A stretch of 64,000 nucleotides of DNA from a virus (IMGVR_UViG_2890725172_000001:46448-110447); one strand, 5' to 3'. Numbered from the stretch's first letter, positions 1,854 through 58,024 are shown. Notes: generated by a model not told the origin, from the sequence alone. Numbers and translations are program-made.

Positions 1854-2128
1854 AGATCAAACAGCGTAAGACCAAGCACCCTGCCGCCTATGACCTCGTC
1901 ACTGAGGATGGGGATGTCTGGTACTGCTTTCAATTCGCCTACGAAGGTCTGATCAATCGTGGTGACCGGAAGGACGTTCCCACCTGGTACTGGGATCACC
2001 GCCGTGAGATCGATCTGTATGACTTCTGGCATCTCATGCGTCCTGATGGCAAGTGGGAGAAGTCTTTCACGCACCTCTCCAAGGCGAAGCAGTACCTGGC
2101 CGAAAAACTAGGAGGACAAGCGAAGTGA
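1850..2128 (+). CDS. hypothetical protein
   Basis: AGGAGGAG RBS, translationally coupled. Confidence 0.75.
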   Translation: MKIKQRKTKHPAAYDLVTEDGDVWYCFQFAYEGLINRGDRKDVPTWYWDHRREIDLYDFWHLMRPDGKWEKSFTHLSKAKQYLAEKLGGQAK

Positions 2129-2856
2129 CCACCGAAAAGCGAGCAGAAGAGATTGGTAAGGTCCTCGCCGCCCACATCGAAAAGCTGTCGGCGGACCCGA
2201 TGCAGCTGCTTTCGAAGCAGGATGCCCTCAGGAGGGTAGCCCGGAGGTACAAGGCGAGGATGCACGAAGTGGAGACCCCTCTCTACGACGCCGTCTACTA
2301 CGGGCACCTGGTCATGCTTCAAAGTGCGGTGCAGGGGCGCCATCTCTCACGCCTCCGCCGCCACCCAAAGCCGGAAATCCATCGATTCCAGTGGGACGGC
2401 TTGGTGGACGACGAAAACGACGCTCCAAAAAACGCTGACTTCATCCTGGATAGCACCGGGTACATTCATCGGGGAAAGGAGACCCGACTAACTTATGATC
2501 TTCCAGACGGGCATGTTCATGCCGACGAAGACTCCGTGTGGGTCACCACTCCCGCAAGGTTCCAAGAGATCCTTCAGGCTCTCCGTGAGATGGGCTGGGA
2601 TCGATCGGTCCGTCAGGGTGCTGAGCGGCTTACTCGCAATGCCTTGATCGAAGCCCTCAGCGACGACATCGATCAGATTGCCGGACTGCTGTGGCTGGCG
2701 GGCATCAAGAATCCGGGGTCGGTGTGGGTATGGGCCAACGAAAAGGGAGTTCAGGTGGATCTCAGCACGAAGGGTGAAGAGCAGATTCGCGCTCTCGCCG
2801 AGATCCTGCGTAAGGCCGGAATTCCGACCGACACCAACTGGCGTAAGTTCGTCTAG
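2125..2856 (+). CDS. hypothetical protein
   Basis: GTG start at 2125 with GGAGG RBS and GTGA overlap. Confidence 0.7.
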   Translation: MTTEKRAEEIGKVLAAHIEKLSADPMQLLSKQDALRRVARRYKARMHEVETPLYDAVYYGHLVMLQSAVQGRHLSRLRRHPKPEIHRFQWDGLVDDENDAPKNADFILDSTGYIHRGKETRLTYDLPDGHVHADEDSVWVTTPARFQEILQALREMGWDRSVRQGAERLTRNALIEALSDDIDQIAGLLWLAGIKNPGSVWVWANEKGVQVDLSTKGEEQIRALAEILRKAGIPTDTNWRKFV

Positions 2857-4827: not shown

Positions 4828-4887
4828 CGTAAAACTTAGCAGGCGTCGATCATCCGACGCATCTGATTTACGGCGAGGTATCGATAC

Positions 4888-18574: not shown

Positions 18575-18664
18575 GGGGGTGATGCTGTAATGTCGAACAC
18601 AGCATCACCTCCTCTCGTTCTACGGTGCTAAACCTCCCGAGCTGAGACTAGGCGGCTCGGGAGG
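18575..18664 (+). ncRNA. two-hairpin structured leader/small RNA upstream of tRNA-Pro
   Basis: GGGGGTGATGCTGT/ACAGCATCACCTCC and CCTCCCGAGCTG/CGGCTCGGGAGG stems, both with G-U pairs on the + strand. Confidence 0.4.
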
Positions 18665-52234: not shown

Positions 52235-54511
52235 TCAGTTCTTCGAGAAGATAATTCCGTCGAGCGACACCCAGTTCGCCGACGAAACCGTACGACCCGA
52301 CACGACCTGACCGTTCGTCCCGATGGTCACACCGATGTACGTCGACTGGCCGTTAGGAACCTGAGCCCGGATCGCCTTAGCCGGACGCGCACCAACAGGC
52401 AGCGTCGTGATCACGTCAGCCGATGTCACGTTGGTCACGGTAAAACGTCCGCGCAACCGCACGATCTCGTTCGCCGCACCCTCAAGCCGGTACGCGGGCT
52501 CATAATCAGAGTCACCCGCACCGACTGCCGTATAAGCACCGTTCGTCGCCGTCAAAGCTGTCCACGCGCCATCGGAGTAGTTCGACGCCGAAATCGCACC
52601 CGTCGCCACGATGTTGCCATTCGGCTTCACGCACGCCAGCACCGTGGCAGACGTCCGGTTATCCAGCACCTGCCAAATATCGGCAGCCTGACCCGAACGA
52701 CCATAAAGCCGCTCAGCCGCTTCCGTCGTCTTCGCCGACTGCGCGCGGGGATTACCGTTCTCGTTCAACCACCACGTCGGCGCCCCGTCCTGCTCCACAT
52801 GCAGCATGTCCTCGGAGGTGACCGGGTCGGTGGAACTGGCCGGGGGAGCGACCAAGCGCACCAGGCGCGTCTGGTCGTTCGGAGAGACCATCTCCAGCTC
52901 GTCGACCGTCAGCTTGTCCTGCACCGTGACCGCGCCGGACACCGTGCCACCCGTCAGCGCCAGCCGCGTTGCCGCCTGAGCCGCCGCCGTCCCGGCAGGG
53001 TCGTAGGTCCCCGTGTGGTTGTGGCCCGAGGTCGCCGCGCCGATCGACGCCGGAGAGATCGCGTCCGACTGGCCGGTGCCGTGCGAGGCCGCGTGCGCGG
53101 TCGGCGTCCGGGCGTTGCTCAGCCGCGAATCGTTCCCGGCCGCGACGGTCCCCGCCGTGGTGCCGACAAGGACACCGATGGTCTGTGTCTCGTCGTCATA
53201 GGTGGCCGGAGCCGTGGCCGCCACGACACCCGGAGGACCGGCGGGACCATCAGCGCCGGGAGCGCCATCGGCGCCGTCCTGTCCGGCAGGACCCTGCTCG
53301 CCGGGCTCACCTTGAACACCCTGGATACCCTGAATGCCCTGGATACCTTGATCACCCTGGACTCCCTGGGGGCCTCGGATGTTGCCCGCCAGCGTCCACA
53401 CACCCGCGATCTGCGAGTACAGATCACCTGTACTGGTCCGCAGGTACAGGTCGCCGTTGGCCTGGAGAGCGACCGGCGCGGCCGTCCCGGAGTACAAGCG
53501 CGGCGTGTGGCCGTCAGCGCCATCGGCGCCGTCCTGCCCATCGGCACCCGGCGGGCCTTGTTCACCCGGCTCGCCTTGCTCGCCCTGAGGTCCTGGCTCA
53601 CCTTGAGGTCCCGGCTCGCCCTGCGGACCCTGGCCGCCGCCCTCACCGCCGAGCGTCCCGGCGAAGATCCACGCGCTGGACTGCTGCTGGTACAGGTCAC
53701 CGTTGACCGTGTTCAGATACAGGTCACCGCTGACATGCAAAACCGTGGGCGCACCCGCGCCCGAATGAAGCTGCGGCGTGTGACCGGCCGGACCAGAAGG
53801 ACCCTGCGGGCCCATCAGGACGCCCATCAACTCCCAGGTGCCGTCCTGCTGCTGGTAGAGCTCGCCGTTGCCGCGCAGGTACAGGTCGCCGTTCTCGCGC
53901 GGAATCGTCGGCAACCCCAGACCGCTGTACATGACCGGTGTGTGTCCGGCCGGTCCCGGAGTGGAAATCACTGCGTCTTCCTCATTGTCTGCGTCCTCGA
54001 CGTTCCACCAGGCCGCGAACTGTGGATCACCGACCAAGTCAGAGGGCTTGAGCTGCTGCACGGAGATGGAGGCCATAAGGTCGCGGCGGCCAACCTGCCC
54101 GTGAATCTGAATGCGCGTGACCCGAAAAACCCGGTTGTCGTAGACGATGCGGTCGCGCTGATAGTCGCCGTGGTCAAGGTCGATCCGGTGAAACCCGGCA
54201 CGGACCAGACCGGCGAAGGGGATGACGAAATAACCCGAGTCGACCCACCACAGACCGCCCGGCTGCTGCCGGTACATCCCCTCTTCGCGGACCAGCGTCA
54301 TGATCGGCAGACGGTGCGGGCCACGGAAAACCCGGCCAGGACCCTGCGACTCCTCGTACACCGCATCCTGCGAAGAGGCGGCGGCGTCGTACCGGTAGTA
54401 CTCCAGCCAATCGCCCCAGACCTGCTCGTAGCCGAGCATCGCCCGGTCGGCCTCGGTCGTCTCGTAGCGAGGTGAGAACCGGCCGGTCGCCTTGTGGTCC
54501 AGACGCGCCAT
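52235..54511 (-). CDS. head-closure domain fused to collagen-like fibre
   Basis: N-terminal ~170 aa (DRIVYDNRVFRV) then GPQ/GEQ triplets and three SG.GAP...GDLYL repeats; C-terminal fibre tip V.LRG..TLP.GARP. Confidence 0.75.
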   Translation of the reverse strand: MARLDHKATGRFSPRYETTEADRAMLGYEQVWGDWLEYYRYDAAASSQDAVYEESQGPGRVFRGPHRLPIMTLVREEGMYRQQPGGLWWVDSGYFVIPFAGLVRAGFHRIDLDHGDYQRDRIVYDNRVFRVTRIQIHGQVGRRDLMASISVQQLKPSDLVGDPQFAAWWNVEDADNEEDAVISTPGPAGHTPVMYSGLGLPTIPRENGDLYLRGNGELYQQQDGTWELMGVLMGPQGPSGPAGHTPQLHSGAGAPTVLHVSGDLYLNTVNGDLYQQQSSAWIFAGTLGGEGGGQGPQGEPGPQGEPGPQGEQGEPGEQGPPGADGQDGADGADGHTPRLYSGTAAPVALQANGDLYLRTSTGDLYSQIAGVWTLAGNIRGPQGVQGDQGIQGIQGIQGVQGEPGEQGPAGQDGADGAPGADGPAGPPGVVAATAPATYDDETQTIGVLVGTTAGTVAAGNDSRLSNARTPTAHAASHGTGQSDAISPASIGAATSGHNHTGTYDPAGTAAAQAATRLALTGGTVSGAVTVQDKLTVDELEMVSPNDQTRLVRLVAPPASSTDPVTSEDMLHVEQDGAPTWWLNENGNPRAQSAKTTEAAERLYGRSGQAADIWQVLDNRTSATVLACVKPNGNIVATGAISASNYSDGAWTALTATNGAYTAVGAGDSDYEPAYRLEGAANEIVRLRGRFTVTNVTSADVITTLPVGARPAKAIRAQVPNGQSTYIGVTIGTNGQVVSGRTVSSANWVSLDGIIFSKN

Positions 54512-55332
54512 CAGATGCCGCCATAGGGGTAGATCCACGGCGACGGCACACCCGAGGTGTCCTCGTGCGGGGAGTCGACCGGCGGCAGCAGCCGCGTCGG
54601 CAAAGAGTTCGGCCCGCCCTCGTCGTATTCGCGCCCGATAAAGAGAGGCACATAACGGCCGGTCGTCTTGGAGATGCGCCGCAACTGGGACGTCTCCATG
54701 CGGTAGGCGCCGATGTTGTATTGGGTGCAGATTTCCTTGTACCGGGCCTGGAGCTGGACGACGTGCATCATCATCTGCTCGTAGCGCTGGCCACGGCGAA
54801 GGTGGGTGCCCTCGGCCGTGATGATGTCCATATCGGTCGCCGCGTCGGTGGCGGCCGAATACAGCGCGTTGATCGTCGCCAAGATCGTGAGCGGGACGAT
54901 CTCGATGTCCGGCAGGTTCGCCAGCGTCATCGGCGTCCGCGTGTAGGTGATGAAGCCGTTCTCATTGCGGCCACGGACCTTCAGCTCACGCTCATGGCAG
55001 TGCTGCCGCTCGGCGTCGGCGACGAACTGTGCGAGCTCGCCGTCGCTGAACAGCGGGTAATGCGAGCCGGTCGTGATGACGGTCGCGTTGTCGGGCAGCG
55101 GGTCGAGCAGCGTGATGATCCCCGTGCGTGCCAGCAGCGTGTACCGCGACGGGTCGATGACCACACTCGGCTGGCCGGGGATCTGCTTGACGACCGTCAG
55201 CCCAACCGTGGAGACATTACGAACACCCAGCTCAAGAACCGGACGGGAGCCGAAAATCGGGACCACGAAATCCTCGGCAAGGTCACCGAGCTCAGTGCGT
55301 ACCCGGGCGATGATGTCGGCGGAAGTCGCCAC
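54511..55332 (-). CDS. head-to-tail adaptor
   Basis: RVRTELGD, FSDGEL, position between capsid and tail genes; AGGAGA RBS. Confidence 0.7.
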   Translation of the reverse strand: MATSADIIARVRTELGDLAEDFVVPIFGSRPVLELGVRNVSTVGLTVVKQIPGQPSVVIDPSRYTLLARTGIITLLDPLPDNATVITTGSHYPLFSDGELAQFVADAERQHCHERELKVRGRNENGFITYTRTPMTLANLPDIEIVPLTILATINALYSAATDAATDMDIITAEGTHLRRGQRYEQMMMHVVQLQARYKEICTQYNIGAYRMETSQLRRISKTTGRYVPLFIGREYDEGGPNSLPTRLLPPVDSPHEDTSGVPSPWIYPYGGI

Positions 55333-55354
55333 GAAAATGGTCTCCTGCTAGGGT
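55326..55354 (+). promoter_or_regulatory. sigma70/HrdB-type promoter driving antisense RNA
   Basis: TCGCCA-N17-TAGGGT with TGn extended -10. Confidence 0.5.
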
Positions 55355-55815
55355 GATCCCACCTCCGCAAGAGGTGGATCTGTTCGAAGAAATCGGTGGC
55401 GCCGGACGCTCATTCGGCGTCACCACGCCCTGTGCTGATCTCAATAGGCACGGGAGGGCTTGTCACAGCCATGACCGGCTCTGAGACCCTCAACTCGTTA
55501 CACCGGGTTGGGGGTTTTCGCCTTTTCCGGCCAAAACGCCGTAGCAACTTGGTAGAGTCTTGGTTGGTTGCTTAGTCGGGTGACACGGACGAAGCACATG
55601 TGGAACTGGCGCTGGACTGTCGAACCCCCGCGCCGGTGAAGAGCCCCTGCCCGACGATCTGCGGGCGGGGGTTCTTCGTTCCTGGCCGATTGAACATCGT
55701 GATAAGTTGTGCAACCTCAAGCGCCCCTGTGTACTTGAGGTCTGTCAGGAATCGGTCCAGATGGCCGATCCGTCTCCCCCGGCCTGATGCCACAGAGCCA
55801 GGCCGGGGGTTTCCT
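55355..55815 (+). ncRNA. putative large structured non-coding RNA (~460 nt), antisense within the virion operon
   Basis: About 11 consecutive hairpins plus long-range stems, G-U pairs on the + strand, no credible ORF, terminator at 55776-55813. Confidence 0.7.
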
Positions 55816-55818
55816 GTT

Positions 55819-56238
55819 CTAGTTCGCCGTCAGGACGAGCTTGCCGATCGCGATCTGCAAAGCCTGACCGTTGACCGGCTGCTGTGGAGCGTCCAGCAGC
55901 CACTTGTGGATGATCTTTCCGGCCGTGCCTGTCGACACGGTCACCAGCGCCGCGTACGTCACCGGCACCGGCATGTCGGCCGTCACAGGCCCGAAGGTGA
56001 TCACGGCGGAGTTCGCGGCCGAGCTCGGCCGCGCGTTGCTGGGGGCGCCCCAGGTGACCGCCTGCCGGGCGTACCCAGCGGTCGTCACCTCCGGCATGGC
56101 CGACATCAGAGCGTCGTCGGCGATGTTGCCGGTCAGCAAGGCCAGGTAGGTGGTCCGCGCCGAGGCGTAGTCCAGGGCCCGGCCGGTGAGATAGTCCAGG
56201 GCGATTTGGCAGCCGTAGACGCTTGGATTACCGGCCAT
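55819..56238 (-). CDS. virion structural protein (head decoration/fibre-anchor family)
   Basis: YLALLT..EV...GYARQAVTW..N...ITF..T...V. Confidence 0.75.
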   Translation of the reverse strand: MAGNPSVYGCQIALDYLTGRALDYASARTTYLALLTGNIADDALMSAMPEVTTAGYARQAVTWGAPSNARPSSAANSAVITFGPVTADMPVPVTYAALVTVSTGTAGKIIHKWLLDAPQQPVNGQALQIAIGKLVLTAN

Positions 56239-56916: not shown

Positions 56917-56949
56917 GAAGCCCCTGAGGAGGCACGTCTCAGGGGCTTC
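56917..56949. terminator. terminator after the major capsid gene
   Basis: GAAGCCCCTGAG...CTCAGGGGCTTC. Confidence 0.75.
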
Positions 56950-56983: not shown

Positions 56984-58024
56984 CTAATTCGTTTCAGCCA
57001 CGATAACAGACTGGTCTGTAATTAGTCCCCAGCCAAAAATGCTATACCAGGCCAATGCGTGTTCACGGCCAAAATCGAGGATACCGCCATCGCGCAATTC
57101 GACGGGCAAAGAAATGGCGTGACCAAACGCGTTGTCCCCAACGAAGATCGACTGATACACGCTCTTACCTGCGGGAACGTCCGTCGCGAGGTCCGGGTTA
57201 TCGGCAGTCGGGGTACCGGTAGTAAGCTTCCGGACCTGAGTCGTCTCGATAAAGACAACGTCGTCGATCTTGCCAATCTCGCCCAGGGAGAACATTCCCG
57301 GCTGCGCGTACTTGCTCATTTCGATCCACTGCGGGTCGTCACGCAGACGCCGCGATTGGTGCGGGTGAACAAACGCCACATAACTGTCTCCCAAACGGGG
57401 GACATTCTTGGTCGCGAGGGTCTCGACAGCGTCCTTGACAAGGGCCGTCGTGAAGTTGAAAGTGCCGTCCAGGCCAGCGCGGTTGGCCGCAGCAGTGCCC
57501 TGGTCGTACGGCGACATCGGGGTGGCCGGTGGCTCCAGCGCGTACTTGTTGTAGCCGAACAGTCGCGACGTGGCAGTAAGCAGAGTATTCCGCGCGCCTT
57601 CGTCGAGATAAGTCGCCATGTTTCGGCCGAGCAAACGCGAGGCCGTGGCCATGACGTCGTCGAACGAAGCGTTCAGAAGCAATTCCGAAACGGCGATGGC
57701 ATAGCCATGCTCAGCGACGGTAATGCTGAAGGTATTAGCGGTAAGGGCCGCTGTCTGCATCCGGATACCTTCAACCAGCTGCGAGGCGCGGCCGAGGTTG
57801 TTGTATCGAACGAAATGCACTGTCAAGCCAGGTTGAACTCCGAGTTCAGTCTTCTTGACAGCAAATTGTTCGAATCGGAGAATTGGCATGGCCTGAAAGA
57901 GAATTTCCTTCGACCACAGTTGTTGGATAACCGCACCCAATTGTGTGGAACCACCAACTCCGGGAGCCGCATAAGCGGTCGGAGAAGCGGAAAGATTGGG
58001 GGTACCCGTGATTGCGCTAGGCAC
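56984..58024 (-). CDS. major capsid protein (N4-gp56 family)
   Basis: RFEQFAVKKTELG..PG, EHGYAI.VSE, HPHQ..LRDD, GEIG..DV.FIET, DFGREH.LAWY. Confidence 0.92.
   Translation of the reverse strand: MPSAITGTPNLSASPTAYAAPGVGGSTQLGAVIQQLWSKEILFQAMPILRFEQFAVKKTELGVQPGLTVHFVRYNNLGRASQLVEGIRMQTAALTANTFSITVAEHGYAIAVSELLLNASFDDVMATASRLLGRNMATYLDEGARNTLLTATSRLFGYNKYALEPPATPMSPYDQGTAAANRAGLDGTFNFTTALVKDAVETLATKNVPRLGDSYVAFVHPHQSRRLRDDPQWIEMSKYAQPGMFSLGEIGKIDDVVFIETTQVRKLTTGTPTADNPDLATDVPAGKSVYQSIFVGDNAFGHAISLPVELRDGGILDFGREHALAWYSIFGWGLITDQSVIVAETN

Follow-up and report, generated by a model that had tools for sequence, protein, structure and literature searches.

A structured non-coding gap with three candidate antisense RNA units in the virion operon of a large actinophage

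The gap between g139 and g273

The viral DNA analysed here is a stretch of 64,000 nt (IMGVR_UViG_2890725172_000001:46448-110447; the window), in which two genes of the head and tail operon are separated by a structured, non-coding gap of 486 nt. The window comes from the 110,447-bp contig C45, part of an 8.3-Mb actinobacterial assembly, and makes up the right-hand 64 kb of that contig; all coordinates are positions in the window unless a related locus is named. Nearly all of its genes are located on the minus strand. The virion module encodes, in this order, the portal protein, a 285-aa scaffold-like protein, the major capsid protein (MCP), g147, g90, g139, g273 and a collagen-like fibre protein. 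The initial annotation had placed the gap in an otherwise tightly coupled structural operon, and the interval 55333-55818 between g139 and g273 is indeed non-coding in a packed minus-strand head/tail operon.

The upstream flanking gene, g139 (55819-56238, minus strand), encodes a structural protein that matches the phrog_240 head protein and Pfam PF23140 (Gp80 fibre-like). The downstream gene, g273 (54511-55332, minus strand), encodes a virion-module protein that is conserved, belongs to no known family and is homologous to LuckySocke gp82. It starts with GTG, and an AGGAG Shine-Dalgarno sequence lies 9 nt ahead. The insert between them (55333-55818, described on the plus strand and called the cassette below) has a GC content of 0.60. 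Across the gap the GC content is 0.57-0.62, compared with 0.65-0.76 in the flanks, a difference of the kind that marks phage morons.

The G+C content at third codon positions (GC3) is ~0.85-0.95 in both flanking genes and falls to ~0.55-0.7, with no clear frame, across 55330-55770. The open reading frames (ORFs) of the gap have a GC3 of 0.54-0.70, compared with 0.75-0.9 in real genes of the phage, and none has a Shine-Dalgarno sequence. For the 73-codon and 59-codon ORFs, a search of 5.8 billion clustered proteins gave no homologue, a 76-codon ORF shows a low-complexity match only among 1.8 billion representatives, and tblastn of the gap ORFs against the related loci described below gave no match. 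By these GC3, ORF and homology tests the gap contains no protein-coding gene of the kind that a classic moron carries, and no conserved translated ORF, one of the findings that the initial annotation had named as refuting its RNA, was encountered. A 13-codon mini-ORF (MWNWRWTVEPPRR, 55599-55640, plus strand) carries three Trp codons just 5´ of the hairpin T2 (55638-77), and a perfect 10-nt alternative pairing (55622-31/55665-74) would compete with T2 in an attenuator-like arrangement. A Trp-leader attenuator was nevertheless rejected, with nothing downstream to regulate.

Plus-strand structure and candidate transcription signals

On the plus strand, the whole gap folds at -233.8 kcal/mol with a z-score, which compares fold energy with that of shuffled sequence, of -6.17; none of 100 shuffles was as good. 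The minus strand folds at -204.7 kcal/mol (z -3.88). In a GC-corrected scan of local folds over the whole window, no 486-nt stretch of the plus strand is more structured than the gap (residual z -3.66), which shares first place with an RNA island at 18.3 kb. The high density of helices noted in the initial annotation is thus borne out by the plus-strand z-score and by the local stems, most of which are formed with mean pair probabilities of 0.87-1.00: 55359-77 (0.87), 55395-55424 (0.98), 55429-54 (0.90), 55484-55517 (0.97), 55605-37 (0.96), the 16-bp stem at 55638-77 (1.00), 55715-40 (0.91) and 55776-55809 (0.99). Among the other proposed local stems, 55751-69 is weaker (0.55), 55543-72 reaches only 0.15, and in place of 55467-80 a two-tier stem is predicted at 55455-82 (0.59). 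The enclosing stems that had been proposed to form junctions are not supported: the TGTCAC/GTGACA pairing has a probability of 0.00 and 55678-86/55744-52 one of 0.37.

The strand bias of the structure is also seen in its imperfect pairs. As previously remarked, the non-Watson-Crick pairs are mostly G-U on the plus strand, with 22 G-U pairs in the minimum free energy (MFE) structure versus one C-A 1x1 mismatch. Across 55395-55677, the hairpins gain 2 to 9 kcal/mol in stability on the plus strand relative to the minus strand, and those at 55715-40, 55751-69 and 55776-55809 are of strand-symmetric stability. The hairpins and their plus-strand RNA signature are therefore real, and a multi-domain long-range architecture is not supported. 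The 5´ arm of the first hairpin (55359-55377) contains CCACCUCC, which resembles the anti-Shine-Dalgarno end of 16S rRNA, and AUCACCUCCU occurs in a hairpin arm of a plus-strand RNA island at ~18.6 kb (18575-18612); both may be coincidence.

Three putative transcription units, A, B and C, are arranged in tandem on the plus strand. The putative promoter of unit A is an extended -10 motif, TGCTAGGGT (55346-55354), which overlaps the g273 Shine-Dalgarno sequence on the other strand. The predicted RNA of ~165 nt (55361-55528) would comprise the hairpins at 55359-77, 55395-55424, 55429-54 and 55455-82, followed by the terminator-like hairpin T1 (55484-55517, -20.7 kcal/mol) and its tail UUUUCGCCUUUU. 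Unit B follows ~22 nt past this tail with the motif TGGTAGAGT (55550-55558, hexamer at 55553) and a putative ~120-nt RNA (55565-55688), in which a hairpin with a C-rich loop (55605-37) precedes the 16-bp terminator-like hairpin T2 (55638-77; 3´ arm and tail GGGGGUUCUUCGUUCCU). The resemblance of TGGTAGAGT to a D-arm was considered as a possible tRNA remnant and dismissed, as neither ARAGORN nor Rfam finds a tRNA. The motif of unit C, TGATAAGTT (55700-55708, hexamer at 55703), lies ~14 nt past the T2 tail, and its putative ~100-nt RNA (55715-55818) would contain the hairpins 55715-40 and 55751-69 before the perfect 11-bp terminator hairpin T3 (55776-55809, -26.0 kcal/mol) with its tail UUUCCUGUU. 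The g139 stop codon is 5 nt from the final base of this U-tail and 9 nt from the T3 stem. The outermost of these signals, TGcTAGGGT at one end and a hairpin with a T-run at 55776-55813 at the other, are present as the initial annotation described them. Alignment of units A, B and C shows that they share the promoter and terminator motifs only, and paralogy was rejected.

All three TANNNT hexamers of the plus strand (55349, 55553 and 55703) carry the TGn extension, and the minus strand of the gap has none. In local dinucleotide shuffles of the gap, TGNTANNNT occurs 0.15 times on average, and the three observed sites correspond to P(>=3) = 0.0002. The motif is depleted in the 64-kb window as a whole (9 found on both strands, 26.5 expected from shuffles), and it is five times denser in the phage (0.16 per kb) than in the host chromosome (0.03 per kb). 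Its other sites in the window include one before the tRNA array and one before a plus-strand hairpin unit at 31.5 kb. In the former region, TGCTAAGTT (4833-4841, minus strand) lies 5 nt 5´ of tRNA-Cys (4828-4754), the first gene of a 14-tRNA array, which suggests an extended -10 promoter with transcription starting almost at the mature 5´ end of tRNA-Cys. The gap motifs are located in non-coding DNA at a sensible spacing to the predicted RNAs, the sequence pattern expected of extended -10 promoters of the sigma-70/HrdB type.

Each gap motif is followed 100-165 nt on by a strong hairpin that finishes in a G5 run with a T-rich tail, and the next promoter motif begins 14-22 nt past the preceding hairpin tail. 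Across the 110-kb contig, the TGNTANNNT sites with a strong hairpin and T-rich tail within 260 nt downstream are the three in the gap and one at 57008, which is on the minus strand, 81 nt ahead of the hairpin following the MCP gene. This latter terminator-like hairpin (56919-56947, minus strand) lies directly 3´ of the capsid gene; a terminator in this position is the usual means of raising capsid mRNA relative to the genes downstream. T1-T3 are three of roughly nine strongest plus-strand terminator-like hairpins in the 64 kb. The plus-strand versions of T1 and T2 are the more stable by 7-9 kcal/mol (-32.5 kcal/mol for T2, compared with -23.8 on the minus strand), and the tails of all three have 5-7 T in the next 10-12 nt, in interrupted tracts and on the plus strand only. 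Folded separately, units A, B and C give z-scores of -5.27, -3.29 and -4.10, and the body of unit A retains a plus-strand signature without T1 (z -3.03, versus -0.91 on the minus strand).

The g139/g273 site in related phages

Related loci were collected via alignment of g273 homologues, which yielded 9 genome loci, 80 viral contigs and 16 metagenome contigs. Identity is highest, at 57-61%, for the g273 relatives P0002-P0005 (from Logan and ENA), a further homologue (P0006) comes from Streptosporangium sp. NPDC023825, homologues at 41-43% identity are found in the Streptomyces myophages BRock, LuckySocke, Alone3, GiJojo and pSt2308 (~112-116 kb), and large Nonomuraea and Streptomyces scaffolds also hold relatives. 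The published account of BRock presents it as a virulent myovirus (PMC7453282). LuckySocke has the identical module gene order with tight packing, and many of the viral contigs with the virion module span 105-116 kb; on account of these homologues, this gene order and these contig sizes, C45 is probably the whole genome of a phage of the BRock/LuckySocke-like group. Reads over the region come only from the source assembly and from one identical 151-nt contig of a soil metagenome (run X2; 55781-55931), which points to the same or a very close phage in soil at low coverage.

The order portal, scaffold-like protein, MCP, g147, g90, g139, g273 and fibre is kept in genome, viral and metagenome loci and in the isolated Streptomyces phages. 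Among the 81 genome and viral loci in which both g139 and g273 could be placed, the two genes abut in about 50 (at most about 28 nt apart, in most cases 2-16 nt), compared with 486 nt here; the cassette is therefore, in the manner of a moron, inserted between genes that are adjacent in relatives. Inserts in this slot occur only in the clade nearest to the window (g273 identity 46-56%), with sizes of 85, 176, ~192, ~238, 327, 353, ~460, 493, 528-534, ~586, 604, 614 and 1236 nt, and their contents are of at least eight unrelated kinds. In seven relatives (L012, L013, L026, L028, L033, L038 and L041), the slot contains a reverse-oriented ORF of 92-152 aa, the product of which has one or two transmembrane-like segments, and six of these seven ORFs are linked by BLASTP. 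All seven relatives have a CTGGTA motif ~33 nt from the g273 start and an own hairpin terminator of the insert that faces g139. Three other relatives have extra sense-strand ORFs in the slot, and several with short gaps (L023-25, L027/30, L032 and L034) have a sense-direction or bidirectional terminator between g139 and g273. Because the flanking genes abut in most relatives and the nearest clade holds variable inserts and reverse cassettes, we take the g139/g273 site, as judged by comparison of these loci, to be a fast-turnover moron slot.

The membrane proteins encoded in reverse orientation in the slot (e.g. L012:3467-3907 and L013:3601-3942, both minus strand) have no Pfam match, and several share the motif P-x-TGE...G-x-P...ER-x-P. 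They may be prophage-expressed cargo such as superinfection exclusion proteins. In all of the moron-bearing relatives, a conserved hairpin element of ~30 nt (CCCGGCGGTAGCGAGGGAACCGGG-like, with the loop GGTAGCGA) is found in the interval that separates the g139 homologue's stop codon from the reverse-moron terminator (L012:3390-3470, L013:3510-3560, and likewise in L026, L028, L033, L038 and L041); it is not present in the window. Two further features were observed at the capsid gene of relatives. In L032 (1717-2500), two tandem terminators after the MCP gene are followed by a reverse 156-aa ORF (2029-2499, minus strand), an arrangement that constitutes a second moron slot, behind the capsid gene. 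The MCP homologues of three Streptomyces/'Saccharothrix' prophage relatives (L017:646-2326, L019:1247-2667 and L020:1240-2636) align in two or three pieces with ~250-300 nt between them that have no similarity to the MCP of the window, and these interruptions could be introns, inteins, insertion domains or frameshifts.

The insert of the window has no sequence in common with any slot content of the relatives, and no trace of a decayed copy of their moron protein was found in the gap. Searches with nhmmer and blastn against all fetched related loci, and with blastn and megablast against phage and plasmid collections, gave no match. Three single-sequence covariance models picked up only unrelated terminators in 99 related loci, among them the pair behind the MCP gene of L032, and gave no match in the host genome. 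In all, the searches for a match covered about 120 related phage loci. A DNA search of 400 host-family genomes returned only matches of 32-45 nt, nine to the T2 stretch and one to 55736-55767; they lack the gap hairpin, apparently represent GC-rich host coding sequence and were set aside as chance. Comparison with Rfam 15 by cmscan (E <= 10), a check that the initial annotation had proposed, gave no real match of the gap to any family, including GOLLD, ROOL, HEARO, 6S, Ms1, 6C, tmRNA, RNase P, group I/II introns and riboswitches; the sole match was NsiR1 on the terminal hairpin (16.6 bits, below the gathering score of 39; E 3.2). ARAGORN predicts 15 tRNAs in the window and no tRNA or transfer-messenger RNA (tmRNA) within 55333-55818, so that the earlier impression that tmRNA, RNase P and intron hallmarks are lacking was confirmed. 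A CRISPR-repeat mimic acting as an RNA anti-CRISPR was rejected, as the best host match is 23 nt (E 0.013, background level) and no repeated host segment is involved; a type III antitoxin RNA was likewise rejected, with no direct-repeat family beyond chance pairs of 8-17 nt.

A candidate RNA moron and its alternatives

The combined features point to a plus-strand, independently signalled non-coding RNA locus, which we consider likely. At a probability of about 0.5, the gap is a non-coding moron with three tandem plus-strand small RNA (sRNA) units that are antisense to the spacer of the late mRNA. The cassette would have been acquired horizontally into the insertion slot of the BRock/LuckySocke-like actinophages of ~110 kb. 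Each unit would start at an extended -10 promoter (TGnTAnnnT) that is independent of a -35 element, and would be terminated by a GC-rich hairpin, the G5 run of which leads into a U-rich tail. Host RNA polymerase would then produce small structured RNAs independently of the late operon, for instance in the early phase of infection, in a carrier state or in lysogeny. Because the minus strand of the gap has neither a -10 motif nor a U-tailed hairpin, late transcription presumably reads from g139 through g273, and the units would show full complementarity to the 486-nt intercistronic spacer crossed by this head-to-tail transcript. Action in cis is favoured: the sRNAs would pair with the read-through late mRNA to form double-stranded RNA (dsRNA) for RNase III cleavage, and transcription from the unit A promoter could interfere at the ribosome-binding site (RBS) of g273, which it overlaps. 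The expression of g273 and the tail genes would thereby be uncoupled from, or damped relative to, that of the head genes. As a second option, the sRNAs would act in trans on host mRNAs. The transcription, RNA ends and function proposed for units A-C are predictions from the nucleotide sequence.

Several observations weigh against this reading. The promoter motifs have no recognisable -35 element, two of the three were spotted by eye ahead of the statistics, and one of the nine TGNTANNNT matches in the window is inside a tRNA gene, which shows that the motif is not always a promoter. A strict terminator consensus scan accepted none of T1-T3, the U-tracts of which are interrupted. The body of unit B alone is no more structured than shuffled sequence (z -0.57), and the body of unit C without its terminator is strand-symmetric (z -2.34 versus -2.79). 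A weak GC3 > GC1 > GC2 pattern (GC1 and GC2 denoting the first and second codon positions) extends across 55620-55770 in the frame of the 73-codon minus-strand ORF. Finally, the cassette is a singleton: blastn, nhmmer and covariance models gave no homologue that would show covariation or conserved promoter motifs.

The initial annotation had proposed one independently transcribed non-coding RNA (ncRNA) of ~450 nt, from the TGcTAGGGT promoter to the terminator at 55776-55813, with T1 and T2 as domains of a possibly undescribed class. The part that stands is that plus-strand promoter-like and terminator-like signals bound a non-coding locus with plus-strand-specific structure; that the locus yields one large RNA with several domains and of a new class is unlikely. 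The strong fold of the whole gap on the plus strand would fit such a molecule, the interrupted U-tracts of T1 and T2 could permit read-through, and the whole-gap MFE structure has some long-range pairs, including 55678-86/55744-52. The probabilities of the long-range helices (0.00-0.37) are nevertheless far from those of the local hairpins (0.87-1.00), and the two internal TGnTAnnnT motifs, which begin 14-22 nt past terminator-like tails, together with two internal terminator-like hairpins, have the layout of tandem genes rather than of domains. No Rfam family, from GOLLD, ROOL, 6S and Ms1 to the rest, matches, and no homologue was found through which covariation could appear; for want of any homologue, a new class of structured RNA cannot be claimed for now. 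It is equally improbable that the function resides in the minus-strand late mRNA or in the DNA itself, with spacer hairpins that pause, process or stabilise the transcript in cis, or with plus-strand terminators that insulate the head genes. The sense-direction terminators of the short-gap relatives do suggest a regulatory boundary that is ancestral in the clade, the minus strand also exceeds its shuffles in structure, and the hairpins of unit C and T3 are strand-symmetric. The best hairpins are, however, 7-9 kcal/mol weaker on the minus strand, on which the body of unit A has a z-score of -0.91 (-3.03 on the plus strand), no hairpin has a U-tail and no TANNNT occurs. The 22 to 1 asymmetry of G-U and C-A pairs also argues against function on that strand, and the three plus-strand extended -10 motifs would be left unexplained.

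A decaying remnant, either of a former reverse moron or of successive insertions whose coding sequence was lost, with fossil signals and any RNA functionless, is given a similarly low probability. It would be compatible with the rapid turnover of the slot, with the singleton status of the cassette and with the unstructured body of unit B, and only two stops interrupt the plus-strand frame of the 59-codon ORF over the length of the gap. Yet no residual similarity to the moron proteins of relatives was detected, and erosion should be symmetric, whereas the mismatches are almost all G-U on one strand. Three intact TGnTAnnnT motifs would also be unexpected under decay, given that the genome purges this motif elsewhere. 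One or more small proteins, encoded by the 59-codon ORF (55396-55575, plus strand), the 73-codon ORF (55572-55793, minus strand) or the Trp-rich 13-codon ORF, are the least probable explanation by a wide margin. Such ORFs exist, and the weak codon-position pattern coincides with the frame of the 73-codon ORF, but their low GC3, the lack of Shine-Dalgarno sequences and the empty homology searches speak against translation; in addition, the 59-codon ORF crosses T1 and the 73-codon ORF crosses the 16-bp stem of T2.

Among known systems, the three-unit reading of the cassette can be compared with phage morons, which in HK97 and lambda are independent promoter-gene-terminator units between genes adjacent in related phages. 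The cassette shares with them the insertion between abutting genes, the opposite orientation, own promoter-like and terminator-like signals and a GC content below that of the flanks, and relatives hold classic protein-coding morons in the same slot. It differs from them in lacking a gene-like ORF, in an apparent RNA payload of three tandem units instead of one gene, and in that its expression is predicted. Phages also produce cis-antisense RNAs such as lambda OOP and P22 sar, and an ONT-cappable-seq study reportedly mapped antisense RNAs in structural regions of Pseudomonas phages. The units would resemble these in being short, terminator-ended and opposite a phage mRNA, and dsRNA formation, RNase III cleavage and transcriptional interference are plausible for them. 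The known examples, however, overlap the coding regions or RBSs of regulatory genes, whereas the target here would be a non-coding spacer that exists only through the insert, and unit A ends short of the g273 RBS.

Prophages further encode trans-acting sRNAs, including DicF, IpeX and AsxR/AgvB of Shiga-toxin phages, which are Hfq-dependent, enterobacterial and have known targets. Units A-C are similar in that they would be small structured RNAs with intrinsic terminators and accessory cargo of a phage late region; unlike them, they have no found target, seed or homologue, the best host match being the 23-nt one at background level. GOLLD, ROOL and 6S/Ms1 are comparable as non-coding, highly structured RNAs that are phage-borne or actinobacterial, but the gap matches none of them by cmscan and is a string of local hairpins with no supported long-range domains. 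The first reading is thereby corrected, with ordinary small transcription units favoured over a giant RNA of the GOLLD/ROOL type. The cassette would best be filed as an RNA-only, singleton member of the phage moron or phage sRNA kind.

If the units are transcribed, the gap would be a clean case of non-coding cargo in an actinophage moron slot, with three tandem sRNA genes in antisense to the single long spacer that the late operon has. Literature searches turned up no transcript map for the BRock-like phages of ~110 kb, and the units would offer a handle on the ratio of head to tail expression and on the accessory RNAs of phages in Hfq-less actinobacteria. A bolder proposal, to which we assign a slightly smaller chance than to the rivals of similarly low probability above, is that the cassette represents an undescribed module, an 'RNA moron', that times or balances head and tail expression by antisense cleavage of the late polycistronic mRNA or, as a decoy or sponge, counteracts a host factor or defence, and that is interchangeable as slot cargo with a protein. 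In that case, RNA and a membrane protein, possibly one of superinfection exclusion, would be interchangeable solutions at one site of these phages.

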